Positions 1,147 to 18,940 are shown, counted from the first letter of the stretch. The stretch: DNA of 64,000 nucleotides from Escherichia coli (GCF_029227855.1 NZ_CP074356.1), one strand, 5' to 3'. A program made the numbers and translations. Notes: generated by a model from the sequence alone, not told the origin.

Positions 1147-1180
1147 ATAAAAATGGCGCTGCATTTGCGCCATTTTTATT
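1147..1180. terminator. Bidirectional intrinsic terminator between convergent ykgJ and yagU
   Basis: Hairpin AAATGGCGC-loop-GCGCCATTT flanked by A-run and T-run. Confidence 0.5.
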
Positions 1181-1190
1181 ATTCAATGCA

Positions 1191-1805
1191 TTATCTGTTT
1201 GAGCCTAAAGGGATCTCAGGGTCTGGCTCATGAGTAATTCTGTTTCGTAAATCTCTGCGAATAATTTCAATGGACCAGAACCAGACTAAATGTCCAAAAA
1301 TTTCAGAAACATTCTCATACCACGGGAGATCAAACAGAGGTGGCGTCAGTCCCATGAGAGGGAATGAAATCATATGAACAAAAAGTTGGGCTAAAGCACC
1401 TGCCAGTAAGCCCTGCCAGAGTTTAATTTTTGGAAATACTTCAGCGACCACACAATAACCGACAGCAAACACTATCGAAAAGATAATGTGCGTAACACCA
1501 ACCCAGTTAAAGACATGCCCGGCAAAGGTATAAACAGCCGCATTGGGATCTGTCAGCCCCAACCAGTCTCGAAGAAAAATATACGGAGGATTGAGAAAAT
1601 TACGGGAGCAATCAATTTGCCCAGCAGCCCTGATTAATGATTCCGGGCCACACGCTGCATTAAACATATCCACCGGGCTACGTGGCGGCAATGGAACTTC
1701 AGCCCCCCACTTCACAAATGCGGAAACAACGCCAGCAATCAGCCCAATGAATGCAGCAAGACCATAACGTCTGCGGTTCGGTGGAGTTTGTTCAAATATA
1801 TTCAT
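1191..1805 (-). CDS. yagU: Inner membrane protein YagU (DUF1440 family)
   Basis: 204 aa hydrophobic protein; conserved position next to paoA. Confidence 0.75.
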
Positions 1806-2210
1806 ATCTACCCTGCTTGTACCATTATGTTATACACCTCTTCAGGAGTATTCATAAAATAAGACAAATGTAAAGAACTGTATTGTTTTGTATAATGCAA
1901 TGGTGACTAATCGCCAATGAATATAAGCACCATCATTTCTCCCTATTTTTATATTAAAAGTGACAACGATTTACAGGGTGATGCTGAGCTGACAATCACA
2001 GGTTTCCTTATCGGTTTTTGCATCGCACAACTAAAGCAATAAACTAGCTCCCGTCATCGGCGAATATGAATTAATTAGCCGGGCTCATAGCTGCATTCGC
2101 GTTTTAAGAATAATCCTCCTGCTCTCACCGACTATGCTTAACGTTTAAAAAAGCATCAGCACTCTCGCAACGCACTCTTATTTTCCCCTTTAGAATACCG
2201 GAGGCCTGGT

Positions 2211-2900
2211 ATGAGCAACCAAGGCGAATACCCCGAAGATAATCGGGTTGGGAAGCACGAGCCGCACGATTTTAGTTTGACCCGTCGCGATCTGATTAAA
2301 GTCAGCGCCGCAACGGCGGCGACCGCCGTGGTTTATCCTCATTCTACGCTTGCGGCAAGCGTTCCGGCAGCTACACCCGCGCCAGAGATAATGCCCCTGA
2401 CACTTAAGGTGAACGGCAAAACCGAGCAGTTGGACGTTGATACCCGAACCACGCTACTGGACGCTTTGCGTGAAAATCTGCATCTGATCGGTACCAAGAA
2501 AGGTTGCGATCACGGACAGTGCGGAGCCTGTACCGTGCTGGTCAATGGTCGAAGGCTTAATGCCTGCCTGACGCTTGCAGTCATGCATCAGGGGGCCGAG
2601 ATCACCACCATTGAAGGCCTGGGTTCACCAGACCATCTTCATCCTATGCAGGCGGCCTTTATCAGACATGATGGCTTCCAGTGCGGCTACTGCACCTCCG
2701 GGCAAATTTGCTCATCAGTAGCGGTGCTAAAAGAGATTCAGGACGGCATTCCCAGTCACGTCACGGTCGATTTGGTTTCCCCTCCAGAAAGAACTGCCGA
2801 TGAGATCCGTGAACGTATGAGCGGCAACATCTGTCGCTGTGGTGCATACGCTAACATCCTTGCCGCCATTGAAGACGCTGCGGGGGAGATAAAATCATGA
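2211..2900 (+). CDS. paoA: Periplasmic aldehyde oxidoreductase, 2Fe-2S ferredoxin subunit PaoA
   Basis: 229 aa; twin-arginine signal LTRRDLIK; two 2Fe-2S Cys clusters ([16 protein letters not shown]...CRCG). Confidence 0.9.
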
Positions 2901-3853
2901 AGGCGTTTACCTATGAACGTGTGAACACCCCTGCCGAGGCGGCACTTAGTGCTCAGCGCGTACCCGGCGCAAAATTTATCGCGGGCGGGACCAATCTGCT
3001 GGACCTGATGAAGCTGGAAATTGAAACGCCCACCCACCTTATCGATGTGAACGGGCTCGGGCTCGATAAGATTGAAGTGACCGACGCGGGTGGGCTGCGC
3101 ATCGGCGCACTGGTACGGAACACCGACCTGGCGGCTCACGAGCGCGTGCGTCGTGATTATGCGGTACTCTCCCGCGCCCTGCTCGCTGGCGCGTCTGGTC
3201 AGTTACGTAATCAGGCAACCACCGCAGGTAATCTGCTCCAGCGCACGCGCTGCCCCTATTTTTACGACACCAATCAGCCCTGCAATAAGCGCCTGCCCGG
3301 GAGCGGCTGCGCGGCACTTGAAGGCTTTAGCCGTCAGCACGCGGTGGTAGGCGTAAGCGAAGCCTGCATTGCCACCCATCCGAGCGATATGGCGGTCGCA
3401 ATGCGGTTGCTGGATGCGGTAGTGGAAACCATCACGCCGGAGGGAAAGACTCGCAGTATCACACTGGCTGATTTTTATCACCCTCCGGGAAAAACGCCGC
3501 ACATTGAAACCGCCCTGCTTCCCGGTGAGCTTATCGTTGCGGTGGCATTACCTCCGCCGCTCGGCGGAAAACATATCTACCGCAAGGTGCGCGATCGCGC
3601 CTCCTACGCCTTTGCCCTGGTATCGGTCGCGGCGATTATTCAGCCTGACGGCAGCGGGCGCGTCGCGCTGGGCGGAGTAGCACATAAGCCCTGGCGCATT
3701 GAGGCTGCGGATGCTCAGCTATCCCAGGGGGCGCAGGCCGTGTATGACGCGCTGTTCGCCAGCGCCCATCCCACCGCTGAAAACACCTTTAAACTCCTGT
3801 TGGCGAAGCGAACGCTTGCCTCCGTACTGGCTGAAGCGAGGGCACTGGCATGA
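2897..3853 (+). CDS. paoB: Periplasmic aldehyde oxidoreductase, FAD-binding subunit PaoB
   Basis: 318 aa; FAD-binding fold motif [11 protein letters not shown]; 4-nt overlap with paoA. Confidence 0.9.
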
Positions 3854-6048
3854 AATTTGATAAACCCGCAGGGGAAAACCCGATCGATCAGCTGAAGGTT
3901 GTCGGTCGTCCCCATGACCGCATCGACGGACCGCTGAAAACTACCGGCACGGCACGCTACGCCTACGAATGGCATGAAGAAGCCCCCAACGCCGCCTATG
4001 GTTATATCGTCAGTTCCGCCATTGCCAAAGGACGCCTCACCGCCCTTGATACGGACGCCGCGCAAAAAGCGCCGGGCGTACTGGCTGTCATTACCGCCAG
4101 TAACGCTGGGGCACTCGGCAAAGGCGACAAAAACACCGCCAGGCTGTTAGGCGGCCCCACTATTGAGCACTATCATCAGGCCATTGCGCTGGTAGTGGCT
4201 GAGACCTTCGAACAGGCGCGAGCGGCGGCCTCGCTGGTGCAGGCGCACTATCGCCGTAATAAAGGAGCTTACTCCCTGGCGGACGAGAAACAGGCCGTCA
4301 GTCAGCCGCCGGAAGACACGCCCGATAAAAATGTTGGTGACTTTGACGGGGCTTTCACCTCCGCTGCGGTAAAGATTGATGCTACCTACACGACCCCGGA
4401 CCAGAGCCATATGGCGATGGAGCCGCATGCCTCGATGGCCGTCTGGGATGGGAATAAGCTTACCCTCTGGACCTCAAATCAGATGATTGACTGGTGCCGC
4501 ACCGATCTGGCAAAAACGCTGAAAGTGCCCGTGGAGAATGTGCGTATTATCTCCCCGTATATCGGCGGAGGGTTTGGCGGCAAGCTGTTCCTGAGAAGCG
4601 ATGCGCTGCTGGCGGCCCTCGCCGCCCGTGCGGTGAAACGTCCGGTTAAAGTGATGCTCCCCCGCCCCACTATTCCCAATAACACCACGCACCGCCCCGC
4701 CACCCTTCAGCACCTGCGTATCGGTGCCGACCAGAGCGGGAAAATCACCGCTATCTCACATGAAAGCTGGTCCGGAAACCTGCCCGGCGGCACGCCGGAA
4801 ACGGCGGTACAGCAAAGCGAATTACTCTACGCAGGGGCAAACCGTCATACAGGCCTGCGGCTCGCCACGCTTGATTTGCCGGAAGGGAACGCCATGCGTG
4901 CGCCCGGCGAAGCCCCCGGTCTGATGGCGCTCGAAATCGCGATCGATGAACTGGCGGAAAAAGCGGGCATCGATCCCGTCGAGTTTCGCATCCTGAATGA
5001 CACTCAGGTTGACCCCGCCGATCCGACGCGCCGCTTCTCTCGCCGTCAGCTTATCGAGTGCTTGCGCACCGGAGCGGATAAATTTGGCTGGAAGCAGCGC
5101 AACGCCACACCCGGACAGGTGCGCGACGGGGAGTGGCTAGTCGGCCACGGCGTCGCAGCGGGCTTTCGCAATAATCTGCTGGAAAAATCGGGTGCGCGGG
5201 TTCATCTCGAACAAAACAGCACCGTTACCGTGGAAACGGACATGACCGATATTGGCACTGGCAGCTACACCATTCTGGCCCAGACGGCAGCGGAAATGCT
5301 TGGCGTACCGCTGGAGCAGGTTGCGGTTCACCTCGGCGATTCCAGTTTCCCGGTTTCTGCGGGGTCTGGTGGACAATGGGGCGCGAATACCTCCACCTCC
5401 GGCGTTTACGCCGCCTGTGTGAAGCTTCGCGAAATGATTGCCTCGGCAGTCGGGTTTGATCCTGAGCAGTCGCAGTTTGCCGACGGCAAGATTACCAACG
5501 GTACCCGAAGCGCCACGCTACGTGAGGCCACCGCAGGCGGTAGACTGACAGCGGAAGAGAGCATTGAATTCGGAACACTGAGCAAGGAGTACCAGCAATC
5601 GACCTTTGCCGGGCATTTTGTGGAGGTCAGCGTGCATAGCGCGACGGGAGAAGTTCGGGTCCGACGTATGCTCGCCGTGTGCGCAGCGGGGCGCATTCTG
5701 AATCCGAAAACCGCACGCAGCCAGGTCATTGGCGCAATGACTATGGGCATGGGCGCGGCACTGATGGAGGAGCTGGCGGTAGATGACCGTTTGGGCTACT
5801 TCGTTAATCACGATATGGCGGGGTATGAGGTGCCGATTCATGCGGATATCCCAAAACAGGAGGTGATTTTCCTGGATGATACCGACCCCATCTCCTCCCC
5901 GATGAAGGCCAAAGGTGTCGGTGAGCTGGGCCTGTGCGGCGTGAGCGCGGCTATCGCCAACGCGGTGTATAACGCCACCGGTATTCGGGTACGGGATTAT
6001 CCCATCACTCTGGATAAGCTGCTCGATAAACTGCCGGATGTGGTTTAA
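3850..6048 (+). CDS. paoC: Periplasmic aldehyde oxidoreductase, molybdopterin-binding subunit PaoC
   Basis: 732 aa xanthine dehydrogenase-family Mo subunit; coupled to paoB. Confidence 0.9.
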
Positions 6049-6057
6049 GGAGGAACA

Positions 6058-7014
6058 ATGTCATACTCGCTTTTTGACAAAGACGAGCACTGGCATAAGC
6101 CAGAGCAGGCGTTTCTCACCGATGACCACCGGACCATTCTGCGCTTCGCCGTAGAGGCGCTAATGTCCGGTAAAGGAGCGGTGCTGGTGACGCTGGTGGA
6201 GATACGCGGCGGCGCGGCGCGCCCGCTCGGGGCGCAGATGGTGGTGCGCGAAGATGGTCGTTACTGCGGTTTTGTCTCTGGCGGCTGCGTGGAGGCCGCT
6301 GCCGCTTTTGAAGCGCTGGAGATGATGGGCTCAGGCCGCGATCGCGAAATTCGCTATGGTGAAGGTTCGCCGTGGTTTGACATCGTTCTGCCCTGCGGCG
6401 GTGGGATCACGCTGACGCTCCATAAACTACGCTCGGCACAGCCTCTGCTCGCCGTGCTGAACCGCCTGGAACAGAGAAAACCGGCGGGTCTGCGCTACGA
6501 TCCGCAAGCTCAATCGCTGGTGTGCCTGCCCACGCAAACCCGGACGGGCTGGAATCTCAATGGCTTTGAGGTGGGGTTCAGACCATGCGTCAGTCTGATG
6601 ATTTACGGACGTTCTCTTGAGGCGCAGGCAACCGCGAGTCTTGCAGCAGCCACAGGCTATGACAGCCATATCTTCGATCTTTTTCCGGCCTCAGCCAGCG
6701 CTCAGATCGATACCGATACGGCGGTCATTTTGCTGTGCCATGATCTCAACCGGGAGCTGCCAGTGTTGCAGGCCGCGCGAGAGGCAAAACCCTTTTATCT
6801 CGGCGCATTGGGCAGCTATCGAACCCACACTTTACGTCTGCAAAAGCTCCACGAGCTGGGATGGTCCAGGGAGGAGACAGCGCAAATCCGGGCACCCGTC
6901 GGGATATTCCCCAAAGCCCGGGATGCGCATACTCTGGCACTCTCCGTGCTGGCAGAAGTCGCCTCTGTACGTCTCCATCAGGAGGAGGATTCATGCCTGC
7001 CCCCGTCGTCCTGA
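6058..7014 (+). CDS. paoD: Molybdenum cofactor insertion chaperone PaoD (XdhC family)
   Basis: 318 aa XdhC/CoxI-like protein directly after paoC. Confidence 0.85.
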   Translation: MSYSLFDKDEHWHKPEQAFLTDDHRTILRFAVEALMSGKGAVLVTLVEIRGGAARPLGAQMVVREDGRYCGFVSGGCVEAAAAFEALEMMGSGRDREIRYGEGSPWFDIVLPCGGGITLTLHKLRSAQPLLAVLNRLEQRKPAGLRYDPQAQSLVCLPTQTRTGWNLNGFEVGFRPCVSLMIYGRSLEAQATASLAAATGYDSHIFDLFPASASAQIDTDTAVILLCHDLNRELPVLQAAREAKPFYLGALGSYRTHTLRLQKLHELGWSREETAQIRAPVGIFPKARDAHTLALSVLAEVASVRLHQEEDSCLPPSS

Positions 7015-7094
7015 TCCTTGCGGCCGGGCGTGGAGAGCGCTTTCTCGCCTCCGGGGGAAATACCCATAAATTAAGAGAAAAATCTGCAGTAGCC
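7005..7094 (+). pseudogene. 5' remnant of a MobA/MocA-like nucleotidyltransferase gene (about 28 codons), coupled to the paoD stop
   Basis: ATG overlapping the paoD end encodes MPAPVVLILAAGRGERFLASGGNTHKL (ILAAGxGxR NTP-transferase motif); similarity then stops and the frame runs into the 3' end of the opposite-strand transporter gene. Confidence 0.4.
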
Positions 7095-7193
7095 GTTTTA
7101 GAAAATCACCTAAATCGTTTAAAAGAGCACCCAACCCATAGTGGGCGCTCATCGCCTTGTGTAACTTATTCAGCAACGCGCGCCCTCGCCGGA

Positions 7194-8387
7194 CTAAAGC
7201 GCACCGGCCTTCTGGCGTGCGGTAACAAAGGTCAGTACGCCAGCGCAAAGGAGCAGCACGCTACTCATAGCAAACGTGCTCTGCCAGCCAAGGCGGTCAA
7301 ATACGATGCCTCCTGCTGTTGATCCAAGGGCGATGGAGAGCTGAATCACCGCGACCATGAGCCCGCCTCCGGCTTCGGCGTTGTCAGGCAACGTACGCGC
7401 AATCCATGTCCACCATCCGGTTGGCGCGGCGGTGGCCAGCATGCCCCAGAGTCCTAACAGCAGCGAGACCGTCCAGACGTGATGCCCGGTCAGCATCAGA
7501 CCGATAGCAATGACGGCCATCAGTCCGGGTATGGCCATCAGCGTGGGGTAGAATTTTCTGTTGAGAAATGCCGAAACAACCAGCGTGCCAATAAAACCGG
7601 CCACGCCGATAATCAGCAAAATCAACGACAAGCCTAAGGAATTAACCCGTGTCACCGACTCCAGAAACGGGCGCACATAGGTGAATAGTGCAAACTGCCC
7701 CATGAAAAACAGGCAGCAGGCTATCATGCCGACCACAACCATGCGGCGGCTAAATAAGCGGAATACCGCGCCACATGAAGTGTGGCTTTTATTCGCATCC
7801 ATGCTTGGCAGGCTGATGCACTGCCAGATAAAGGCGACAACCGCGATGGGCACCAGGCACAAGAAAGCGCCTCGCCATCCGACCGTAGCCCCCAGATAGC
7901 TTCCCAGCGGTGCGGCCACGACCGTCGCCAGCGCATTACCGGCGTTGAAAATTGCCAGCGCACGCGTGACCTGATGCTGCGGCACCAGACGAATCGCCGT
8001 TGCCGCTGACATCGACCAGAATCCGCCAATAGCCACACCAATCATCGCACGACCGACCATATACATCAGATAACTGGAAGCCAGCGCAATAATAAGCCCC
8101 GATACGGCCATCAGAACCGTCATCCCCAGCAGCAGGAACTTACGATTCATCTTTCCAGCTAGCGTTGAAAGCGTCAGGCTGGTCAGAACCGCCAGCGCGC
8201 CGGAGATAGCAATCCCCTGCCCTGCCAGCCCCTCCGTCACGCCTAAATCGCGGGTAATCGGCGTGAGCAGGCTGACGGGCATAAATTCAGAAGCAATCAG
8301 CACAAACACGCACAGGGTCATGGCAAAAATACCGCCCCAGTATGCGCGCTGATGATGAGGTGATAGTGTTTGGCTTAGTGTCGACAT
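7194..8387 (-). CDS. Major facilitator superfamily transporter (12 predicted TM helices)
   Basis: 397 aa, hydrophobic throughout with MFS-like glycine-rich loops. Confidence 0.7.
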   Translation of the reverse strand: MSTLSQTLSPHHQRAYWGGIFAMTLCVFVLIASEFMPVSLLTPITRDLGVTEGLAGQGIAISGALAVLTSLTLSTLAGKMNRKFLLLGMTVLMAVSGLIIALASSYLMYMVGRAMIGVAIGGFWSMSAATAIRLVPQHQVTRALAIFNAGNALATVVAAPLGSYLGATVGWRGAFLCLVPIAVVAFIWQCISLPSMDANKSHTSCGAVFRLFSRRMVVVGMIACCLFFMGQFALFTYVRPFLESVTRVNSLGLSLILLIIGVAGFIGTLVVSAFLNRKFYPTLMAIPGLMAVIAIGLMLTGHHVWTVSLLLGLWGMLATAAPTGWWTWIARTLPDNAEAGGGLMVAVIQLSIALGSTAGGIVFDRLGWQSTFAMSSVLLLCAGVLTFVTARQKAGAL

Positions 8388-8462
8388 AGTGAAATTTCAC
8401 AAAGATCAGGATAAAAGCCACCAGCCTATGGCCGGTGGCTTTGCATCAATTCAGGAGAGGTT

Positions 8463-9620
8463 TTATTTCAGTTTGGTCTGGAAAAATTGTTCGAACTTCG
8501 CGAAAGGTATTTTTCCGGCCACGTTATCGTACAGGTCCACGTGATTTGCCCCTGGTACCACCACCAACTCTTTGTCTTTACTGCCAACCGCCTTGTAAGC
8601 ATCTTCAGCAAAATAGCGTGAATGTGCTTTCTCACCGGTCACAATCAGCGTCGGAATGGTGATTTCACTGGCGTAGCTCAACAGCGGCATATTCATAAAT
8701 GACAGCGGCATCGTTGCCGTCCACGCCCCGGTAGAGTTAACGGAACGTTCGTGGAAGCCGCGCGGCATGCGATAGTAGTCAAAGAACTCTTTCAGTACCG
8801 GATGAGGATTTGCCGGCAGCGTTTCTGGCAGAATGCGCTCGCCCGCACTGACCTTGCCGTTGCTGTCGACATTAATATCATGACCACCGTGAGCGAACGT
8901 TCCGCTCTGCGCATCCTTCCAGCGCTGTTCATTCAGATATTGCAGAACAGCACGACGGTCGGCGGTAGAATAACGGTCTTTGCCATCCCCCACACCATGG
9001 CCCATCGCCCGGCTCATGTCATACATCACGCTGGTAGCTACCGCTTTAACGCGGGTATCCATCGCCGCGTCGTTCAGCGCCATGCCGCCCCAGCCACAAA
9101 TACCGAGCAGCCCGATACGGTTGCGATCTACCTCTTTTTGCAGCCCTAAGAAATCCACTGCCGCGCTGAAATCTTCAGTGTTGATATCCGGTGAGGCGAC
9201 GTTTCGCGGATAGCCGCCGCTTTCCCCGGTGTAAGAAGGATCGAACGCCAGGGTAACAAACCCTCGTTCCGCCAGCGTCTGCGCATACAGGCCGCTGGAT
9301 TGCTCTTTCACCGCGCCAAATGACCCACTGACCGCAATCGCCGCCAGCTTGCGATCGCCACGGTCTTTAGGCAGGTAAAGATCGCCCACTAAGGTGATGC
9401 CATATCGGTTCGGGAACGAGACTTTACGGTGATCGACTTTCTGGCTCTCGGCGAACGTTTTATCCCATTTATCTGTCATGGACACAGGGGCATTAGGATT
9501 GGTTGAATCAGCATAACTCATTGTCGTGACTCCACTTAATGATGCGAAAAGCAGCATGGTCGGCATCGCGGTTTTTAGCGTGCGGGTGAAGGCTTTCATA
9601 AAAATCCCCATAAAAAACAA
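8463..9620 (-). CDS. Secreted alpha/beta-fold hydrolase; alternative start at 9599 (MKAF...)
   Basis: 385 aa; N-terminal signal peptide; nucleophile-elbow-like motif GICGWGG; upstream of the MFS gene on the same strand. Confidence 0.55.
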   Translation of the reverse strand: MFFMGIFMKAFTRTLKTAMPTMLLFASLSGVTTMSYADSTNPNAPVSMTDKWDKTFAESQKVDHRKVSFPNRYGITLVGDLYLPKDRGDRKLAAIAVSGSFGAVKEQSSGLYAQTLAERGFVTLAFDPSYTGESGGYPRNVASPDINTEDFSAAVDFLGLQKEVDRNRIGLLGICGWGGMALNDAAMDTRVKAVATSVMYDMSRAMGHGVGDGKDRYSTADRRAVLQYLNEQRWKDAQSGTFAHGGHDINVDSNGKVSAGERILPETLPANPHPVLKEFFDYYRMPRGFHERSVNSTGAWTATMPLSFMNMPLLSYASEITIPTLIVTGEKAHSRYFAEDAYKAVGSKDKELVVVPGANHVDLYDNVAGKIPFAKFEQFFQTKLK

Positions 9621-9785: not shown

Positions 9786-10670
9786 ATGGCGAAAAGGGAG
9801 AACTACAACGAGCTGTACCTGTTTATGCAGGTGGTGCGGGAAGGCAGCTTTACCGCAGCGGCTCAGCGGCTGGGTCTTGCTCAGTCAGGAGTCAGCCGTT
9901 CTGTTCGCGAGCTTGAAGAAAGGCTGGGTGTCCAGCTGCTAGTGCGCACCACGCGTAAACTGTCGCTGACACAAGCAGGCGAGCAGCTCTACCAGAAGAC
10001 GGCATCTGGATTTGAAATGTTAGATCTTGGGCTTGCCACGCTGGCGCATTATCGAGAGACGCCCTCCGGCACGGTGCGTATCAATGCCAGCCAGCACGCG
10101 ATTGATAAATGCCTGCTGCCAAAGCTGGCGGTATTTAAACAGAGATATCCTGATATCCGGCTTGAACTGATAAATGAGAGCCGGTTCGTCGATATCATCG
10201 AGGAAAGATTCGATGCAGGTGTCCGCCTGGGGCCTGAAGTCGGCCAGGGTATGGTCGCGGTACGCATCACGCCCGATATGGAGATGGCAATTGTGGGGAC
10301 TCCGGAACATTTTCGTCGCTATGGTTTTCCGCAAACCCCGGCGGATTTAAAGGCGCATCCCTGTATCGCCTATCAGTTTGCCGACGGCAGCGTATACCAG
10401 TGGGAACTCAATCAGGATGATAAAAAAATCACTCATCGCCCTGAAGGGCAATGGGCCCTATCCGACAGCTATATGGAAGCAGAAGCCGCCCGGCTGGGCC
10501 TCGGATTGGCCTATGTTCCTGTTGAACTGGTCGCGGATGATTTAGAACACGGTAAGCTTATCAGGGTGTTGCAGCGTTACAGCCTGCGAATGGAGGGATT
10601 GTTTCTCTATTACCCTCATCGCAACGTCTCCCCCGCCCTGCGGATGGTCATTGATACATTGAAAATCTGA
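9786..10670 (+). CDS. LysR-family transcriptional regulator
   Basis: 294 aa; N-terminal HTH (FTAAAQRLGLAQSGVSRSVRELEERLGVQLL); divergent from the hydrolase-MFS pair. Confidence 0.85.
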   Translation: MAKRENYNELYLFMQVVREGSFTAAAQRLGLAQSGVSRSVRELEERLGVQLLVRTTRKLSLTQAGEQLYQKTASGFEMLDLGLATLAHYRETPSGTVRINASQHAIDKCLLPKLAVFKQRYPDIRLELINESRFVDIIEERFDAGVRLGPEVGQGMVAVRITPDMEMAIVGTPEHFRRYGFPQTPADLKAHPCIAYQFADGSVYQWELNQDDKKITHRPEGQWALSDSYMEAEAARLGLGLAYVPVELVADDLEHGKLIRVLQRYSLRMEGLFLYYPHRNVSPALRMVIDTLKI

Positions 10671-11103
10671 ACGTTAACAACGACCGACTCTTCACTGTGC
10701 AAAATTGTGTCAGGTAGTCCCTCTGCGTTCAATTCCAGGGTCTGCTTTGAGCGAGAAAGAGGGGACTATCCAGCAATGGAGATCACCCAAAAGAAAAAAC
10801 CACCTGGCTCCCTCGACAACCTTCATCCGGGCATTTAGCCTCAATCAACATTTTTATATCTGTCAGGTTACTTCATTATGAAAACTGATCATCATCGTTG
10901 TTTTTGTTGCAATAGTAGAATACGCGTATTTATTCCTCCATCTCTATTAATAACGGCAATAAACTGTTCACTTCACTGATATTTAAAATATGTATCCTTT
11001 TCAAGCTGTTCAGCGGCGTAAGAAAAAGTATTAATTATGAATTCGATGATTTAACCATATCTGTCTGATTGGTAATCATCCGTGATTAATGCTGGTCTAT
11101 TGA

Positions 11104-12024
11104 TTACGCCAGAACCCTCTCTAGCTTATTCACCGCCGCCACATACTTCGCCGGATTTTTATCTTTAAGCACCGCCAGATTGCGTTGCTTCCAGCGAATA
11201 GCCGGAAGATGCTGAATTTCAGGATAGCGATACCGCGACCAGTCAGGGCTGTTTTGCTTAAAACTGAGCAAGAACTCGCGATCCAGATCCGTAAGATGTG
11301 ACTTCAACGCCTGCGGCAGCAAAGTCGTTACTGACAGAAGCGATTCCAGCGACGTTTCCTGTTGCGTCATCCCTGAAAATTCCTGCGCGTACAACGTGGC
11401 GATCCGCTCTGTATCCCAGTTTGGAGCCAGCAACTCGGCGATGGGGCGGGGATGGCCTGCCAGATAACAAAGAAAACCGTCAAAGATCTCCCGCATCAGT
11501 CCCGGTTTCTCCAGCATATTCAGCACATCAAACAGATCGCGCGGGTGCTGACGATCAAGCGCAGCGCAGATTTTACCGCCATAAAGATCCGCCAGCGAGA
11601 CGACACTCATGGTGGTGAAGCCATACTCCATTTCCACACGTTCGCACACAGGCATTTCTGCCGGAGGCAACAACAGCCCGCGCCAGACCGGGCTAACCTC
11701 GATCTTAATCTTTGCATCAGCGGTATTCACAATGATGCGCTTTTCATCCGCTTTATTTTCCTGCCGAATCGCGGTGATCCCCGGTCTGCCGTTCAGCGAT
11801 GCAGTAATCCTCTTCAAAGCGTCGTTGATAGCCGCCAAATCAGTATCGCGATCCGCAAAGCTCTTGTACGCCAGATCAATATCCACCGACAGACGGGGAA
11901 AATCCTGCACAAACAAATTGATTGCGGTGCCGCCTTTCAACGCGAAACAGGACTCCTTCGCCACATACGGCAGAGCGGCCATCAACAGTTTGACCTGCCG
12001 GGCATAGCTATCACGCAGATCCAT
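11104..12024 (-). CDS. abiEii: AbiEii-type nucleotidyltransferase toxin (DUF1814 family)
   Basis: 306 aa; NTase motif GGTAINLF...RLSVDIDL; 14-nt overlap with upstream partner. Confidence 0.7.
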   Translation of the reverse strand: MDLRDSYARQVKLLMAALPYVAKESCFALKGGTAINLFVQDFPRLSVDIDLAYKSFADRDTDLAAINDALKRITASLNGRPGITAIRQENKADEKRIIVNTADAKIKIEVSPVWRGLLLPPAEMPVCERVEMEYGFTTMSVVSLADLYGGKICAALDRQHPRDLFDVLNMLEKPGLMREIFDGFLCYLAGHPRPIAELLAPNWDTERIATLYAQEFSGMTQQETSLESLLSVTTLLPQALKSHLTDLDREFLLSFKQNSPDWSRYRYPEIQHLPAIRWKQRNLAVLKDKNPAKYVAAVNKLERVLA

Positions 12025-12814
12025 CTTCGACTCCTTCCGGTTTAAATGCGCGTGGAACAGTAATTTGATAATCCGGCTCCAGCCAGCCGCCGGGTATGAT
12101 TTGCCGCTTTCCCGTACCTGTTTCTATACCGCTTTGATCAATATACTGAAAATAAGGGTGTCCATTACGCCGGGCAAGGTAAAGCATCACCCGGTTGGTT
12201 TTAACCGAATGGCTGGCGCGAAGCAGTGCCTGCAATTTGCGTGGGCTGAGAAGATTCAACCCCTGAAACAGAGCATCGGCATGTTCGAACGAGATTAACG
12301 AAGGAACGCCGCAGGCGATCTCATACGCGGCCAGTTCCGGAACACTGCCTGCTAACTGGCGGTCGCCAATTTTCAGTTCCGTAGTAAATGGCGTTACATC
12401 AGCGGTAAGGCCTGACGTATACAGCGTGACAAACGTTGCGGATTGTTCAAAGGCAGAAAACCATCCCGGCAGTTTGACGTAAGCCGGAAGCGCGAGCCAG
12501 ACCTGCGGCTTACCCTGTTCGGTATAGTGCGCATGACCCTGAAGCGCAAGGCTGGTTAGCCCCGCCACCCGAACAGGCTTTTCCCACTGCGATTGCAGGC
12601 AGTAAACCGCATCCACCCAATCCGGTTCACGACCCGTCCGGCAGTATACGCCGTGAGCGATCCGCCTGAGCCAGCCATTCTTCACATAGAGATAAGAGAG
12701 CTTACGATCTATGCCGTTGCGGGTAAGCCATGACTGGAGCAGCACCTGGCCGGGTAGCGTGTGCTGCATCAGCCAGTTTAGATAGTTTGGCAACTGTCGC
12801 CTCTGAATAGACAT
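12011..12814 (-). CDS. abiEi: AbiEi-type antitoxin / transcriptional regulator
   Basis: 267 aa; sits immediately upstream of and overlapping the NTase gene, the usual AbiE arrangement. Confidence 0.6.
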   Translation of the reverse strand: MSIQRRQLPNYLNWLMQHTLPGQVLLQSWLTRNGIDRKLSYLYVKNGWLRRIAHGVYCRTGREPDWVDAVYCLQSQWEKPVRVAGLTSLALQGHAHYTEQGKPQVWLALPAYVKLPGWFSAFEQSATFVTLYTSGLTADVTPFTTELKIGDRQLAGSVPELAAYEIACGVPSLISFEHADALFQGLNLLSPRKLQALLRASHSVKTNRVMLYLARRNGHPYFQYIDQSGIETGTGKRQIIPGGWLEPDYQITVPRAFKPEGVEDGSA

Positions 12815-13108
12815 TAGTACAAATATTTAAACCAGTGTAGATTCAGGGATACGCCACAGCAAGAAATAGTTTACTTATTCCTCATTTTGTCGACTAAAAA
12901 TCGACATTAAACAAAAAATTCAAACTTAATCACTTTCGGGAAAAATGTGACAAATATATGCTCGGACTGGTTGCGGGGAGCGTGTAACATGGATACAAAT
13001 CAAAATTATTGCCAGCCTCACTGATGGATTACTGGTGTCAAGAGCCCCCCTTCGGGCATGAAACGGCTGGCTAATTCTGTACAGACTGTAATCTAAGGAC
13101 GATAACGC

Positions 13109-14884
13109 ATGACATATCAGGCAATTTTCACTGGCTGGGATGATCTGACGATTGAAGACCTTCTGGTCGCTTACCGGAAAGCAAAAGCCGATAGCTTCTT
13201 TGAGAATACATTTCCTGTTGCTATCAAATTTGCCGAGTATGAGCAGGAATTACTTGAAAACCTGCAAAAACTCTTAGATCTTTTGCAGAGCGAAGATGGA
13301 TTCAGTAGCAATAAGAAGTTGATTGGCAAATTTCGTTTGTTACCGAAAAAATTAACCACAAAGAAAAAACATGAATCCCAAAATGGACACGTCCACTTTT
13401 CTAATCCTAAACGAGCAGCCGACCATTTATTTAATAATTTTGATCTGATACCAGAGTTTCGTATTATTGGTGACTTCCCGGTTGATAGTCACATTATCTC
13501 TGCACTATGGATTAACATGGTCGGGCATAAATTTGATGCCAGCTTAGATAACTGTTGCTATGGCGCGCGGCTAAAGCGTATTCGTAATGATGAATTATTT
13601 AGCGATGAGCAGGATAATCCATTCCATATCAGTGCCGTGGGTTCTTTTAGCCCCTACTTCCAGCCCTACCAAAAATGGCGTGGTGATGGCTTAAAAGCTA
13701 TACGTGACGAGTTGGAAAAAGATCGTGACATTATCGCCGCCTCACTGGATTTAAAAAGTTACTATCATTTTATTGATCCACTGGCTATAACCTCTGATGA
13801 TCTCTATAACACACTAAACATAAAACTGACTGAGGATGAAAAAGCGTTTACTGCACAGTTAGCAGTATTCTTAAAGCACTGGTCTGACGGCGCAGCGGCA
13901 TTTGGAAAGAAAATAGCGTACAAAACACCTGTTATTAATGGTGGTCTGGTCATTGGATTAACAGCCAGTCGGATCATTTCAAATATATTGCTACACCATT
14001 GGGATAAATTAGTCATTGAAAAACTATCACCAATTCACTACGGTCGTTATGTCGATGATATGTTCCTTGTAATACGCGATACAGGGACAATTACTAATAA
14101 TCACGAATTTATGTTATTGCTGCAAGATAGGCTTGGCAATGATTGCGTTTATTTGAAAAACGAGCAAAAACAAATATGGCAAATACAGCAGGGCGAGCAT
14201 TTCCAGGGTAAGACCACCATCCAGTTACAATCCGATAAGCAAAAACTTTTCGTGCTTCAAGGGAGGGCTGGAATAGACCTGCTCGACAGTATCGAAAAGG
14301 AGATCTACGAGCTTTCTAGTGAACACCGCTTGATGCCTTCACCGGATCAACTGGAACACTCCACCGCAGCTAAAGTCCTTTCCGCTGCCGGTAGTGTAGG
14401 TGAAAATGCCGATACTCTGCGCCGTGCGGATGGATTAACCATTCGTCGTTTGGGCTGGTCACTGCAATTACGCTACGTTGAAACACTGGCACGAGATCTG
14501 CCTCCAAGTGAATGGAAAGAACAGCGGGAAGAGTTTTATCAGTTTGCCTACAACCATATTCTTAGGGCTGATAATCTATTTGCACATTTTAGTTATCTGC
14601 CAAGGCTGCTTGGCTTTGCTATCAGTATGAATGAATGGCAGCACGCGGAAAAAATTGTACTTAAAGCTTACGAATCCATCAACCTGTTGGCATCGGTGAT
14701 TACTTCAGGTAAGGAAGTGAATATAAATGGTTGCAAAACTCGAGCAGTAAATGATCTTTGGCGCTGTATAAAAGGCACATTAAGCTGGCTATTTGTTGAT
14801 GCAGCGACACGATATTACAGTCCTGACAGATTATTTCTTGATAAACGTTCAAAGAAAGAAGAGTGCCTTGCGGATACATTTTAA
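13109..14884 (+). CDS. Reverse transcriptase (UG/Abi-type defence RT); likely the N-terminal part of an RT-nitrilase fusion interrupted at a T4 tract
   Basis: 591 aa; RT motifs in order: FRLLPKK (motif 1), LDLKSYYHFID (A), GGLVIGLTASRIISNIL (B'), YGRYVDDMFLV (C, YxDD); stop codon TAA begins inside TTTT at 14879-14882. Confidence 0.8.
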   Translation: MTYQAIFTGWDDLTIEDLLVAYRKAKADSFFENTFPVAIKFAEYEQELLENLQKLLDLLQSEDGFSSNKKLIGKFRLLPKKLTTKKKHESQNGHVHFSNPKRAADHLFNNFDLIPEFRIIGDFPVDSHIISALWINMVGHKFDASLDNCCYGARLKRIRNDELFSDEQDNPFHISAVGSFSPYFQPYQKWRGDGLKAIRDELEKDRDIIAASLDLKSYYHFIDPLAITSDDLYNTLNIKLTEDEKAFTAQLAVFLKHWSDGAAAFGKKIAYKTPVINGGLVIGLTASRIISNILLHHWDKLVIEKLSPIHYGRYVDDMFLVIRDTGTITNNHEFMLLLQDRLGNDCVYLKNEQKQIWQIQQGEHFQGKTTIQLQSDKQKLFVLQGRAGIDLLDSIEKEIYELSSEHRLMPSPDQLEHSTAAKVLSAAGSVGENADTLRRADGLTIRRLGWSLQLRYVETLARDLPPSEWKEQREEFYQFAYNHILRADNLFAHFSYLPRLLGFAISMNEWQHAEKIVLKAYESINLLASVITSGKEVNINGCKTRAVNDLWRCIKGTLSWLFVDAATRYYSPDRLFLDKRSKKEECLADTF

Positions 14885-16316
14885 TCATATTTCACAAAGT
14901 CTGACGAATCTAAAGGATTTACTGGATCTTCGCTTTGATTCAGCAGATTTTTATTTAAAAGCGCCATTGGTAGCTCGAGCTGATTTAGCAAAGGAACCTT
15001 ATAAACAGATCGTAAAGAGTCAGTCGGCAGAAAAACTTGTTAATCAGCGTGATAGTAAAAAAGAAGTTAAAATACTGAAATTAATGAGCGACTCATCGCT
15101 TATTGATATTGACGTTATTAAGCTATTTTTGAAATCAACCAAGAATACCCGACTGGAAAAAGTGGCTAAAGGAAATCGTAAGAACGAAAGTTACCTACCT
15201 TACATTTTCCCTACACGTCCTTTAACACCCGCTGAAATATCAGAACTGGCCCCCGAATGTGTTGGATTACCCTCCACATCCGACAAAAAACCAGATGAGA
15301 GACCGTCCACCATTTGGGCAAAATATACTCAAGCATTACGCGGAGTATGGATCAAACCGACGTTGCTAGCATCGGAGCAGGACTCAGATGAAGCGACAAA
15401 AAAAGCTCGGCCTAAGAAATTCATTCATATTGGCACAGACAGGAAACATAAAGTTGTCGTTGCGCTAACCAGCATTAAAACAGAGGAGGACGACTGGGCT
15501 AAAATGGCCTGCAATAAATCTAACTTGTCCCGTTCAAGGTACCAGCGGATTTCTGAACTGGTTAATGCAACATTGAAACTATCTCCTAAACCTGATTATG
15601 TTTTATTCCCTGAGCTTTCAATCCCGTTACGCTGGGTTAACAGTATTGCTGATCGTTTGAGTTCGGCGGGTATCAGTCTAATTGCGGGAACAGAATACCG
15701 CCACTTAGACGATAATCAACTGAAGAGTGAGGCCGTACTTGTCCTTTCAGATAACAGACTCGGCTATCCAGCGAGTGTCAAAATATGGCAACCCAAGCTG
15801 GAACCCGCCGTAGGTGAAGATGAGGCATTATTTTCAACTTATGGTAAGTCTTGGGATTCGACACTTAATGTTAAACAACGTAAGCCGGTATATATTCATC
15901 ACGGCGTCAATTTTGGCGTTATGATTTGCTCTGAACTCCAGAATAGTAAAGCGAGGATCCGTTTTCAGGGCGCACTCGATGCATTAATGGTATTGAGCTG
16001 GAATAAAGATCTAGATACGTTTGCATCGTTGATTGAATCAGCAGCGCTGGATATTCATGCCTATACTATTTTAGTGAATAACCGAAAATACGGCGATAGT
16101 CGCGTACGTTCCCCGGCAAAAGAACCCTTTATGCGTGATATTGCTCGTGTGAAGGGCGGTGATAATGACTTTGTGGTCGCTGCAACGCTGGATATCGACT
16201 CGTTAAGGGCATTTCAGAGCAGGGCAAAACGCTGGCCTAAAGGCGGCGATAAATTCAAACCGTTACCTGAAGGATTCCAGTTGGCAAAGAACCGCAAAAA
16301 GCTACCGCCAAAATAA
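14793..16316 (+). CDS. Nitrilase / CN-hydrolase domain protein; probable C-terminal part of the RT-nitrilase protein (frame +1 relative to the RT ORF)
   Basis: 507 aa as called (TTG start, no convincing RBS); nitrilase-like triad context YVLFPELSIP (Glu), VKIWQPK (Lys), GVMICSELQN (Cys); overlaps RT ORF by 92 nt. Confidence 0.75.
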   Translation: MLMQRHDITVLTDYFLINVQRKKSALRIHFNHISQSLTNLKDLLDLRFDSADFYLKAPLVARADLAKEPYKQIVKSQSAEKLVNQRDSKKEVKILKLMSDSSLIDIDVIKLFLKSTKNTRLEKVAKGNRKNESYLPYIFPTRPLTPAEISELAPECVGLPSTSDKKPDERPSTIWAKYTQALRGVWIKPTLLASEQDSDEATKKARPKKFIHIGTDRKHKVVVALTSIKTEEDDWAKMACNKSNLSRSRYQRISELVNATLKLSPKPDYVLFPELSIPLRWVNSIADRLSSAGISLIAGTEYRHLDDNQLKSEAVLVLSDNRLGYPASVKIWQPKLEPAVGEDEALFSTYGKSWDSTLNVKQRKPVYIHHGVNFGVMICSELQNSKARIRFQGALDALMVLSWNKDLDTFASLIESAALDIHAYTILVNNRKYGDSRVRSPAKEPFMRDIARVKGGDNDFVVAATLDIDSLRAFQSRAKRWPKGGDKFKPLPEGFQLAKNRKKLPPK

Positions 16317-16478
16317 GAAACTGATTTTCGCTATTAATAATCAGGGTATTTTTGCGTGAGATGTCGGTAAACATGATGTAGCCCTTGCCACTCATGACCA
16401 ATCGCAGTATCTTTCTCCCGCGCCTGCAAAATCAGGCGTCGGGATTAGCCTCCTGAAGAAATCTTATCGGCGACACAT

Positions 16479-16500
16479 GACGCGCCAGCGTCTTTTTTTG
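16479..16500 (+). terminator. Possible intrinsic terminator downstream of the nitrilase ORF
   Basis: Short GC hairpin GACGC-GCCA-GCGTC followed by T7. Confidence 0.3.
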
Positions 16501-16662
16501 TGTTGTTCGCACGGTTACATCTCAATGGTGGGCCGGGCGGGGGCGTCGCAAGACGCGCCAGTGTCCGATAAGGCTGGTAAGGCTAACCCTGCCCGGTTCC
16601 ACCACCCGCGAGATTAGCCTCTCCGGTGGTGGCTTGAACACCCACTTATCGGAGGTTGCCCT

Positions 16663-17133
16663 ATGGCTACAATCCTCACCACTGACAGCGATTTACTCGA
16701 TCTATTGACCGTCCCCTTCAATGCCACCACGGATTTCACTGTCCTTGCTGACTACTGCGCCCGCTTTGCCGAAACCCTGATTGAAACCGACGATCCAGCG
16801 CTACGACTGGCGCTCTGCGGGCGGCTTCACGCGGCTCTTGCGCTACTGCAACCCACACTACACGACCCCATCCCACCGCATCTTACCGAAAGCCTGACCG
16901 TGGATACCCTTCCCGCCACACCAGAGCACTTTATTTCCGAACCTGATTCCTTGTGCGAATACTGCCTCGCACTACTCCAGCTTCTGCTGGAACGTCCGGC
17001 GGAACCAAAAATGGAGCAAACCCTGACCGGGCTGCTGTGTGAGCTGGTCTGGTATTTCACGGAAGGACTCAAAGCCCCACGCTGGCTGCGTACCGCCGAC
17101 GGCGTAAAATTTATCAGCGAGGTGGCCGCATGA
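16663..17133 (+). CDS. Hypothetical protein, no recognisable domain
   Basis: 156 aa ORF with a good RBS (GGAGG); stop overlaps the start of the Ner-like fragment. Confidence 0.5.
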
Positions 17134-17270
17134 TGCAACAGGACTGGCATTCCGCCGACATTATTGCGGTGCTGAAAAAGCGGGGAACGCCTCTGGCGGC
17201 ACAGAGAAAAACTCATTGCGGAAGCGCTGTAAATATCGCCAGAAATCATCTGGCCTTCAAGGTACTTTGA
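17130..17270 (+). pseudogene. Ner/Nlp-like DNA-binding protein gene, internally deleted and frameshifted
   Basis: N-terminus [24 protein letters not shown] is Ner/Nlp-like; similarity then breaks, and a second Ner-like stretch (REKLIAEAL) appears in another frame. Confidence 0.5.
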
Positions 17271-17311
17271 TAGCAAAGGCAAGCAGGCTGGTTCAGTCCA
17301 GTGTTTCTCTT

Positions 17312-17410
17312 CTTGCATTTTCAGAAATGGGAGGCTGGGAGTCTATCGAAATGGTTCGTCGATATGCTCACCTCGCGCCTAATCACCTTACCGAACACGC
17401 ACGGCAAATA
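17312..17410 (+). pseudogene. C-terminal remnant of a tyrosine integrase gene
   Basis: Peptide [30 protein letters not shown] matches the conserved C-terminal region around the catalytic Tyr (RYAHL) of phage integrases; no upstream integrase sequence present. Confidence 0.55.
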
Positions 17411-17496
17411 GACTCAGTCCTGAACCCATCGGTCCCAAATTTGTCCCAGTCAAAAAATAAGGAAGGTACTAATGATGTGTAACTTATTGATTTTAA

Positions 17497-17572
17497 TGGT
17501 GCCGATAAGAGGAGTCGAACCTCCGACCTTCGCATTACGAATGCGCTGCTCTACCAACTGAGCTATATCGGC
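17497..17572 (-). tRNA. thrW: tRNA-Thr, anticodon CGU
   Basis: 76-nt cloverleaf GCCGATATAGCTCAGTTGGTAGAGCAGCGCATTCGTAATGCGAAGGTCGGAGGTTCGACTCCTCTTATCGGCACCA with encoded CCA; anticodon loop CATTCGTAATG. Confidence 0.9.
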
Positions 17573-17686
17573 CCTGAAAGGACATGTTCACGAACGTGAA
17601 TCACGGTGGACAAGGTTAAAACTAACCGGGCGATGCGTCAATGGCCTTGTGAATCAAATGGCTACTTTTGCATCACCCGGTTTTAT

Positions 17687-18940
17687 TTACGCACGAATGG
17701 TGTAATCACCAATGCCGATCCACTTGTAAGTGGTCAGTGCTTCCAGCCCCATTGGGCCACGCGCGTGGAGTTTTTGTGTGCTTACCGCCACTTCCGCACC
17801 CAGTCCAAACTGGCCGCCGTCGGTAAAACGCGTAGAGGCGTTAACGTAAACAGCGGACGAATCCACTTCGTTAACAAAACGCTGGGCGTTGCGCATATCG
17901 CGGGTCAGGATCGCATCGGAGTGTTGTGTGCCGTGTTCACGAATATGGGCGATGGCATCGTCAAGATCGCTGACGATTTTGACGTTCAAATCTAATGACA
18001 GAAACTCATCGTCATACTCTTCGGCTTTAACAGCCACCACCTTCGCGGGGCCTGCCTGCAACTGCGCCAGCGCAGCTACATCTGCGTGTAATGTCACGCC
18101 GCTTTCCGCCATTTGCTTGCTTAATGCGGGCAGGAAGCTATCGGCGATGTTTTTATTTACCAGCAACGTTTCTACCGTATTACATGTGCTCGGACGCTGA
18201 GTTTTCGCGTTGACAATTACTTTCAGGGCTTCAGCGATCTCTGCACTTTCATCAACGTAAATATGGCATACGCCTATACCGCCTGTGATCACCGGGATTG
18301 TCGACTGTTCGCGGCACAGCTTATGCAGGCCAGCGCCACCACGCGGGATCAGCATGTCGATGTATTTATCCATACGCAGCATTTCACTGACCAGCGCGCG
18401 GTCAGGATTATCAATCGCCTGTACTGCGCCTGCCGGTAAATCGCAGGATTTCAGGGCGTCCTGAATCACCGCCACCGTTGCAGCGTTAGTGCGACAGGTT
18501 TCTTTGCCACCACGCAGGATCACTGCGTTACCGGTTTTCAGGCACAGCGAAGCGACATCAACCGTCACGTTCGGGCGAGCTTCATAAATCACGCCAATCA
18601 CCCCCAGCGGTACGCGACGACGCTCCAGACGCAGACCGCTGTCCAGCACACCACCATCAATCACCTGCCCCACCGGATCGGCGAGGTTGCACACCTGGCG
18701 CACATCATCGGCAATGCCTTTCAGCCGTGCGGGCGTCAGTGCCAGACGGTCAAGCATCGCTTCGCTAAGGCCATTGGCACGCGCGTCAGCAACATCCTGG
18801 GCGTTAGCGTTGAGGATGATTTCGCTTTGTGCTTCCAGTTCATCGGCGATTTTTTCCAGCACGCGATTTTTTTCGCGACTGGAGAGTTGCGCTAATTTAT
18901 ACGAGGCTTGCTTCGCGGCAATGCCCATTTGTTCCAGCAT
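17687..18940 (-). CDS. proA: Gamma-glutamyl phosphate reductase
   Basis: 417 aa; aldehyde dehydrogenase-family catalytic Cys region; conserved proBA operon. Confidence 0.9.

Follow-up and report, generated by a model that had tools for sequence, protein, structure and literature searches.

The window analyzed here is a 64,000-nucleotide stretch of the Escherichia coli genome (GCF_029227855.1, NZ_CP074356.1), read on one strand from 5' to 3'. The ORFs found from the left edge of a genomic island to the tRNA gene thrW (approximately 10.9–17.5 kb) encode AbiEii, AbiEi, an RT-nitrilase, and ORF156, as well as fragments of a Ner-like regulator and an integrase. The right part of this island contains the following features.

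13109–16316, + strand: RT_UG5-nitrilase gene, carried as cargo (PADLOC model RT_UG5-nitrilase, 2e-173 and 6e-136 for its two halves)
16317–16662, 346 bp: spacer after the RT-nitrilase gene, from the stop of the RT-nitrilase frame at 16316 to the ATG of ORF156 at 16663
16317–16383, + strand: 3' flank of the RT-nitrilase cargo, outside the conserved RNA module; cargo gives way to backbone at approximately 16383/16384
16663–17133, + strand: ORF156, the candidate regulated gene, encoding a conserved hypothetical protein (156 codons)
17130–17229, + strand: truncated Ner/Nlp-like HTH_35 gene, which overlaps ORF156 by start and stop codon (ATGA) and is cut after approximately 24 codons by a deletion
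17216–17482, + strand: C-terminal fragment of an integrase abutting thrW (PF00589, 23.6 bits with a cut-off of 27.1, profile positions 137–171 of 172)
17500–17572, − strand: tRNA-Thr gene thrW, the integration site of the island (Rfam tRNA, 71 bits)

In the window, the RT-nitrilase gene is split by a 2-bp deletion in a T6 run, and the RNA module described below is intact. In E. coli 042, the RT-nitrilase is intact (1069 aa, 1034 bits with the PADLOC model), and thrW is annotated as tRNA-Thr beside proA/proB/phoE. PGAP reports a frameshifted, incomplete HTH gene at the position of the Ner-like gene and calls the region 17216–17482 an incomplete integrase. This integrase fragment marks the decayed end of the island. 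As for att repeats, a direct-repeat search over positions 10400–17700 did not recover a copy of the 3' end of thrW.

The spacer was described in the first-pass annotation as GC-rich. Its GC content is indeed 53.8%, compared with 41.9% in the RT-nitrilase ORFs, but the average for the window is 53.3%, and the spacer is therefore not enriched; the compositional outlier is the AT-rich RT gene. Two parts can be distinguished in the spacer. Positions 16317–16383 are common only to 263 genomes covering at least 80% of the query, while approximately 800 other genomes match from query position 68 on (window position 16384 and beyond). Since these module-only genomes align from 16384 or later, the first 67 nt of the spacer were assigned to the cargo and the remainder to the backbone of the island. 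Similarity between the window and the genome of E. coli JJ1886 also ends here, just 5' of the −35 hexamer of the promoter listed below.

An IsrK-Like Leader and a C4-Type RNA in the Spacer

The backbone part of the spacer contains an isrK and a C4 sequence, the only such full-length above-threshold Rfam matches in the 64-kb window. Together with their predicted promoter and target boxes, they form a module with the following elements.

16385–16413, + strand: predicted sigma-70-type promoter (consensus scan), with −35 TTGCCA at 16385–16390, a 17-nt spacer, and −10 TATCTT at 16408–16413
16420–16498, + strand: IsrK/P4-seqA-like leader RNA (Rfam RF01394 isrK, 68.8 bits with a gathering score, GA, of 50, E = 1e-14, full-length)
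16421–16438, + strand: leader hairpin 1, from the predicted fold
16439–16456, + strand: leader hairpin 2, displaying box a1
16445–16451, + strand: box a1, TTAGCCT
16463–16470, + strand: box b1, CTTATCGG
16479–16492 (stem) and 16493–16499 (T7), + strand: predicted intrinsic terminator (terminator scan)
16521–16609, + strand: C4/P4-CI-type antisense RNA (Rfam RF01695, 71.1 bits with a GA of 45, E = 7e-14, model positions 1–87 of 87)
16526–16604, + strand: tRNA-acceptor-like closing stem of C4, enclosing two hairpins
16543–16556 and 16557–16578, + strand: inner hairpins of C4, from the predicted fold
16564–16572, + strand: b', TCCGATAAG, in the loop of the second hairpin (16557–16578)
16580–16586, + strand: a', AGGCTAA, in a single-stranded junction
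16614–16620, + strand: box a2, TTAGCCT, complementary to a'
16645–16653, + strand: box b2, CTTATCGGA, complementary to b'
16651–16655, + strand: Shine-Dalgarno sequence GGAGG of ORF156, overlapped by b2 and 7 nt before the ATG at 16663

The leader was assigned to isrK by its score above GA, two 5' hairpins, terminator, and promoter-like site at 16385–16413. A match to RF03163 (c4-a1b1) at 16407–16459 overlaps the isrK hit and reaches 43.8 bits, just short of the GA of 46.7; P4 scores similarly with this model (44.1 bits). When aligned on the isrK start, the place and spacing of the promoter are kept in P4 and in most of the 17 modules compared below. The exceptions are pKPN498, where the fit is looser, and JNE21, where an offset start coordinate displaces the promoter.

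The C4 sequence starts approximately 22 nt past the end of the leader. The family RF01695 (C4 antisense RNA, clan CL00128) takes in the c4 RNA of P1/P7, its founding member, and the CI RNA of P4. In addition to passing GA over its full length, the sequence in the window has a covarying closing stem with two hairpins, and its loops match the flanking boxes, with b2 at the ribosome-binding site (RBS). The 3' tail reads ACCC in the window and ACCA in most relatives, a difference that could affect processing by RNase P. The features described here are far beyond chance, the Rfam E-values being 1e-12 to 1e-14, and the identity of the module as a member of the IsrK/C4 family is close to certain.

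Several structures had been pointed out in this stretch before, and they are recovered here with a specific meaning. A short hairpin followed by a T7 run is the terminator listed above and was scored as an intrinsic-terminator-like site. A longer stem corresponds to the closing stem of C4: the fold of 16526–16604 has a minimum free energy of −51.1 kcal/mol (z = −4.17), and none of 200 shuffled sequences was as stable. The GATTAGCCTC...CTTATCGG repeats are likewise present and were identified as the a1/b1 and a2/b2 target boxes. The direct repeat CGGGATTAGCCTC / CGAGATTAGCCTC has copies at 16440 and 16609, and CTTATCGG has copies at 16463 and 16645. Absent from the first-pass annotation is the recurrence of both boxes as reverse complements in the long stem-loop (CCGATAAG at 16565–16572 and AGGCTAA at 16580–16586). 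Pairing is complete for all combinations in the window: 9/9 for b'-b2, 8/8 for b'-b1, and 7/7 for both a'-a1 and a'-a2. The composite motif TTAGCCT-N(5-35)-CTTATCGG has three matches in the 64-kb window, two sense and one antisense (0.00 expected from shuffles). All three lie in the module, and no other C4 targets were found in the window.

Covariation and Box Specificity in 17 Related Modules

In total, 17 modules were compared, including that of the window and 16 others from thrW and asn-tRNA islands of E. coli, islands of Salmonella, Klebsiella, and Serratia, lambdoid and Stx phages, a P1-like plasmid, and other plasmid prophages. The tandem of isrK and C4 was found in 13 of 14 further loci scanned with Rfam, with a gap of approximately 20–25 nt; in the remaining locus (L006), only C4 was above the threshold. 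The RNA module is also present in phages and plasmids, where it lies 5' of genes for Ant, Rha, Bro-N, ORF6N, or Icd-like proteins.

Covariation, which had been proposed as a check of the structured stretch, was tested on the alignment of these 17 sequences (A2), and 96–97% of the proposed pairs hold. The structure including the long-range pairings a'-a2 and b'-b2 is paired in 95.9% of cells, and the alternative structure with the upstream boxes a1 and b1 in 97.1%. When the partners were slid by 1–3 columns as a control, approximately 40% of cells were paired, and none of 500 shuffles reached the observed values. Compensatory changes were found in 7 of 9 pairs for b'-b2 (93.9% of cells paired), 5 of 7 for a'-a2 (94.1%), 5 of 7 for a1-a', and 7 of 8 for b1-b'. 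Helices 4–6 of C4 are 98.0–99.3% paired, and 11 of their 28 pairs are compensatory.

The boxes set the specificity, each module recognizing its own targets. Many specificities are represented among the modules. The box pair is TTAGCCT/CTTATCGG in the window, TTAGCCT/GTTACAGG in JJ1886 at the same thrW locus, and TTGACCT/CATACTGG in Serratia, and in all three the loops carry exact complements of their own boxes. Between the window and JJ1886, the three copies of box b have changed in concert, and pairing is thereby preserved. The summed duplex energy averages −23.0 kcal/mol for cognate combinations versus −11.8 ± 3.4 kcal/mol for non-cognate ones, and its own target is the best-bound one for 14 of 15 C4 RNAs. 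The 17 modules illustrate how the coordinated exchange of two short boxes creates new immunity specificities, a principle known since P1/P7 and P4.

The Downstream Operon, the Island, and the Proposed Mechanism

Homologues of ORF156 number 646, all of them unnamed and all belonging to Enterobacterales. The gene is under purifying selection (dN/dS 0.10–0.51), including a value of 0.10 between the variants of the window and JJ1886, which have the same deletion junction. The protein is predicted to form a four-helix bundle followed by a C-terminal beta-hairpin (pLDDT 82.8). A fold search with this model gave no informative match, and no family was assigned to ORF156 by Pfam, PHROG, or PADLOC. In a tblastn search of 50,697 phage records, a single match was found, in a 1.5-kb record.

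The Ner-like gene is probably translationally coupled to ORF156, since its ATG overlaps the ORF156 stop codon. Intact homologues of this gene were found in two related loci (L008, 6509–6736; L007, 12701–12955), matching PF13693 with E-values of 4e-34 and 3e-33, and an intact operon of ORF153 or ORF156 with the Ner-like HTH_35 gene is present in related islands. The better-kept asn-tRNA islands contain, in order, cargo, isrK/C4, ORF153, a Ner-like HTH gene, an EFASI RNA, an Integrase_1-type gene, a P4-type integrase gene, and the tRNA gene. In the window, the Ner-like gene and the integrase gene are truncated; ORF156 is intact, as are the promoter, the two RNAs, and each of the six boxes. The junction of the Ner-like truncation is identical in JJ1886, and the decay of the island is thus old; the module and ORF156 have been kept despite it. 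Control of the Ner-like regulator and of island activity, the original purpose of the module, is at least partly lost in this decayed island. The suggestion that the structured stretch could be a remnant of another element is therefore borne out, the module being the regulatory RNA of a decayed island backbone beside thrW.

Such a module is a known kind of element, characterized since P1/P7 c4 and P4 CI and catalogued in Rfam. On the strength of its sequence, the spacer is very probably an RNA immunity or regulatory module of the thrW island, homologous to P1/P7 c4, P4 seqA-CI-seqC, and Gifsy-1 IsrK/STnc1160. In both P1 and P4, the C4 or CI RNA is released by RNase P. The immI region of P1/P7 (a1 b1 - c4 - a2 b2 - icd - ant) has a layout identical to that of the window, with a pair of target boxes on either side of c4, b2 over the RBS of the first ORF downstream, loop and junction positions that expose a' and b', and boxes that define immunity specificity. 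P1-like plasmids with an Icd-like ORF downstream were also found among the DNA-level matches. In contrast to the window, the regulated genes of P1 are icd and ant rather than ORF156, and the element is a plasmid prophage rather than a chromosomal island remnant. No similarity was found between ORF156 and an Icd-like protein, nor was an antirepressor domain found; judged by its downstream genes, the locus is not a P1 immI operon.

The immunity region of P4, which comprises seqA, the CI RNA with seqB, and seqC, gives the same two Rfam matches (C4, 74.9 bits; isrK, 60.8 bits). Their order and orientation are also the same, the isrK-like leader (8615–8692, − strand) being followed by C4/CI (8420–8507, − strand), and the P4 promoter PLE is equivalently placed. 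In P4, the leader transcript itself yields the antisense RNA, which is cut out of it and pairs with boxes on both sides, as it would by analogy in the window. Both modules lie in tRNA-integrated elements with variable defense cargo upstream, and P4-like hotspots are known to carry UG5-large (PMC9226505). The two differ in the distance between the leader and C4 (approximately 22 nt in the window and approximately 107 nt in P4) and in the genes downstream, which are ORF156 and the Ner-like HTH gene in the window and epsilon, orf151, orf106, and alpha in P4. No similarity was found between ORF156 and P4 ORF151, and no psu, delta, sid, epsilon, or alpha gene is present among the ORFs at approximately 10.9–17.5 kb, so that by gene content the island is not a P4-like satellite. 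Additionally, P4 works mainly by transcription termination, and P1 and IsrK by control of translation; the position of b2 on the Shine-Dalgarno sequence suggests a P1-like translational block in the window.

The third relative is the isrK-orf45-anrP locus of Salmonella prophage Gifsy-1. As predicted for the window, its leader has its own promoter and Rho-independent terminator, and its read-through transcript bears a processed stable RNA complementary to IsrK, named STnc1160 (PMC4825925). According to the same paper, IsrK and P4 seqA are structural homologues (PMC4825925), and c4 RNAs have been reviewed (PMC12197685). The output of the Gifsy-1 locus is the antirepressor AnrP, leading to AntQ expression and prophage induction, whereas that of the window would be ORF156 and the truncated Ner-like gene. 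Binding of Hfq and trans-activation of the read-through mRNA are known only for Gifsy-1 IsrK (PMC4825925).

Sequence analysis established the architecture of the module, its complementarity, its covariation, and two overlaps, one between b2 and the Shine-Dalgarno sequence and one between the stop and start codons. By analogy with known systems, the module most likely exerts antisense control over translation of ORF156 and the truncated Ner-like gene, and the mechanism that can be drawn from P1, P4, and IsrK probably applies in the following form. Constitutive transcription would begin near 16420, and the leader terminator would end most transcripts, yielding a short RNA with boxes a1 and b1. 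Read-through transcripts would be processed, by RNase P as in P1 and P4, to a stable C4-like RNA. Pairing of a' and b' in this RNA with a2 and b2 on the read-through mRNA would occlude the RBS and silence ORF156 together with the coupled Ner-like regulator; C4 binding probably also promotes premature termination. Acting as an anti-antisense, the a1/b1 leader or the short RNA in free form may compete for the C4 loops and could thereby switch expression on, as the short IsrK RNA does when it relieves repression and activates the long transcript (PMC4825925).

The textbook picture is extended in two modest ways: the module makes up the conserved end of a tRNA island family, with variable cargo abutting its promoter, and an annotated protein-coding frame, discussed below, overlies the RNA gene. 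It is conceivable, though a speculative reading, that isrK, C4, ORF156, and the Ner-like gene make up a so far undescribed master switch of widespread Enterobacterales tRNA islands that are neither phages nor P4 satellites, and that the RNA pair and ORF156 are selected even after loss of the integrase, for example for RNA-specified immunity against related elements.

Variable cargo is loaded just 5' of the module promoter, with defense genes at thrW and RHS toxins at asn-tRNA. The position of the cargo/backbone junction, just 5' of the −35 hexamer, should help to delimit defense hotspots in the thrW and asn-tRNA islands.

Two other readings of a genuine C4/IsrK homologue have to be weighed. 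The module could have become an inert fossil of a dead island, without present function, as might be expected from the old deletion that truncated the Ner-like gene and the integrase and is common to JJ1886, the loss of all P4-type core genes, and a C4 stem tail ending in CCC rather than CCA. A fossil would hardly be expected to keep its promoter, terminator, stems, and all six boxes intact, nor to change box b coordinately relative to JJ1886 with pairing preserved. The dN/dS of ORF156 between the two variants with the same deletion junction and the retention of the module in approximately 20% of complete E. coli genomes also argue against loss of function, and this reading is considered unlikely.

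Even less likely is co-option of the module as a trans-acting RNA immunity, in which C4 silences incoming phages, satellites, or islands of the same a/b specificity. The c4 and CI RNAs do act in trans and set hetero-immunity in P1/P7 and P4 (PMC12197685), each module has a discrete specificity in the matrix of duplex energies, and the neighboring genes, AbiE and RT-nitrilase, belong to defense systems. However, both boxes of the window together were found in none of the 16 other modules. In a pattern scan of viral contigs for the specificity of the window, single-match stretches only, which look like chance occurrences, were found among the matches listed, none with the three-copy signature.

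Relation to the RT-Nitrilase Gene and to the Annotated Ash Protein

A structured and seemingly GC-rich spacer beside a defense RT invites interpretation as an RT-associated ncRNA, and the first-pass annotation had considered an RNA component of the RT system. The spacer does encode a structured RNA, but it is the isrK/C4 pair of the island and not a partner of the RT, and the RT-linked reading is wrong here. The RT-nitrilase is merely interchangeable cargo upstream of the module promoter, and the module is independent of it.

This conclusion is based in part on the distribution of the two elements. The module was found in 1063 of 5426 complete E. coli genomes (approximately 20%) and the RT in only 260; the module is thus four times more common and is present in approximately 800 E. 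coli genomes without the RT. In JJ1886 and AR_0104, which have the same thrW island, AbiE is followed by type I hsdRMS genes in the place of the RT and then by the module. The RT family, in turn, is distributed across Gammaproteobacteria at identities of at least 70%. In total, 80 loci of RT homologues were gathered; all were searched by blastn, and 30, flanked by 3 kb or more in both directions, were scanned with Rfam. Conservation at such loci was the other expectation attached to an RT-linked RNA, and it was largely not observed: the module is missing from 29 of the 30 loci (Rfam) and 79 of the 80 (blastn). The single locus with the module in the Rfam scan is that of Serratia marcescens, whose RT is 81% identical and where the order of RT and isrK/C4 is as in the window. 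No module was found at the RT loci of Salmonella, Citrobacter, and Yersinia, whose RTs are 75–76% identical. In these genomes, the RT block is composed of hsdRMS, a KwaA-like gene, a 277-aa ORF, and the RT, and adjoins an integrase.

A dedicated ncRNA partner of the UG5 RT-nitrilase, serving as template, primer, or scaffold as in DRT2, DRT3, or DRT9, is accordingly very improbable, and this candidate was rejected after the Rfam and blastn scans. The arguments that could be made for it are the location of the module directly 3' of the RT, in the same orientation and without a strong intervening terminator, the same arrangement in Serratia marcescens, and the tRNA-like acceptor stem of C4. The ncRNAs of DRT2/UG2, DRT3/UG3+UG8, and DRT9/UG28 resemble the module only in position, as a structured stretch beside a defense RT; they co-occur with their own RTs and are needed for defense (PMC9226505), whereas the module fails to co-occur. 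Its conservation stops exactly at the −35 hexamer, its complementarity is aimed at its own transcript and the RBS of ORF156 rather than at the RT, and it is intact in the window, where the RT is frameshifted. Moreover, UG5-large has been reported to have no ncRNA and no flanking transcript and not to require flanking DNA, and class 3 UG/Abi systems, UG5 included, have no known ncRNA (bioRxiv 10.64898/2025.12.16.694600).

Equally improbable is that the stretch encodes a small protein, the 57-aa "ash family protein" of PGAP (16444–16617), a candidate rejected on its RNA-type covariation and sub-threshold Pfam score. The CDS is annotated by PGAP in E. coli 042 and hundreds of other genomes, matches several PHROGs labeled "transcriptional regulator," and resembles PF10554 (Phage_ASH) weakly, with 30.4 bits in JJ1886 and 23 bits, under the gathering score, in the window. 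This ORF, however, spans the intrinsic terminator and the entire C4 RNA gene, its variation obeys RNA pairing (compensatory pairs, with 98–99% of stem pairs kept), and small loop indels are present in alignment A2. The equivalent orf45 is conserved in nucleotides and not in amino acids, as the IsrK paper is cited in a review (PMC12197685), and P4 "cI," initially annotated as protein-coding, turned out to be an RNA (PMC4825925). The annotation "ash family protein" in PGAP, in parts of PF10554, and in several PHROGs thus overlies an RNA gene, which matters for genome annotation.

The RT-nitrilase gene and its defence neighbours

Compared with the intact gene of E. coli 042, the RT_UG5-nitrilase gene at 13109-16316 has lost 2 bp from a T6 run (window 14875-14885) and is thereby broken into two ORFs, 591 aa and 507 aa long. 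Because of this split, the RT gene is probably a pseudogene in the window strain, unless the deletion is a sequencing error. Directly 3' of the RT stop codon, a weak AT-rich hairpin (CTGATT...AATCAG) followed by GGGTATTTTTG was found at 16321-16354 (+). This hairpin could be a weak terminator of the RT gene; it received no call in the consensus scan.

Defence genes next to the RT gene were found in the window and in the comparison loci as follows:

Window 11104-12814 (-): AbiEii/AbiEi type IV toxin-antitoxin pair, directly upstream of RT
Loci L083, L086 and L087, positions 1-9219: block of hsdRMS, KwaA-like, 277-aa protein and RT genes

The AbiEii/AbiEi pair is common to the window and JJ1886, the latter having hsdRMS in place of RT. 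In Salmonella, Citrobacter, and Yersinia (L083, L086, and L087), the RT-nitrilase gene is found at the end of a fixed block, after hsdR-hsdM-hsdS and the genes for a KwaA-like 184-aa protein and a 277-aa protein, in that order; this block adjoins an integrase gene and a tRNA gene. Such a fixed arrangement suggests a larger composite defence cassette, different parts of which are retained by the E. coli variants.

Mosaic identity and module specificity

Comparison of window 17100-17500 with the corresponding JJ1886 region (L002 12713-13110) revealed mosaic identity. Identity between the two is approximately 98% over the end of ORF156 and across the Ner/integrase deletion junction, and 83-86% in the RNA module; the final ~200 bp before thrW are far more diverged. 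This mosaic pattern points to recombination within the thrW locus, which would account for the swapped b box between the window and JJ1886.

Two tandem isrK+C4 modules with differing specificities were found in phage PPyecE_EH1910 (L090 836-1024 and 1492-1680). The boxes of one module are a = TTCGCAG and b = GTCAACGG, and those of the other are a = TTGGCGT and b = GTTATCGG. In the 17-module alignment (A2, columns 233-236), the tail 3' of the C4 closing stem is ACCC in the window (16605-16607), JNE21, and Serratia; most other modules have ACCA, a form similar to the 3' end of tRNAs that RNase P uses.

Protein annotations over RNA genes and other Rfam RNAs

Annotated CDSs that overlie an RNA gene were found at the following sites:

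Window 16444-16617 (+): PGAP 'ash family protein' CDS, spanning the IsrK terminator and the entire C4 RNA
L004 3923-4468 and L094 2423-2968: further examples

The translation of the window CDS is matched by Pfam PF10554 (Phage_ASH) as well as by PHROGs 3960, 821, and 995 ('transcriptional regulator'). Certain phage CDSs labelled 'antirepressor' or 'ash' have their start codon upstream of isrK and continue across the RNA gene. Translated RNA genes appear to be part of what these protein families were built on.

Other Rfam RNAs were found at the following sites:

L083 9836-9966, L092 4421-4550, L006 13608-13735, L007 13975-14103, L092 4073-4199: EFASI/STAXI RNAs, related islands
Window 985-1185 (-): IS009 RNA (RF02111, 187.8 bits)

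EFASI RNA (RF02957) is located between the Ner-like HTH gene and the Integrase_1/Phage_int_SAM_2 gene in related islands, one of which additionally has STAXI RNA. The window lacks both RNAs, as its island has lost this segment through a deletion. IS009 RNA was also found at the corresponding position in JJ1886, near yagU and ykgJ.
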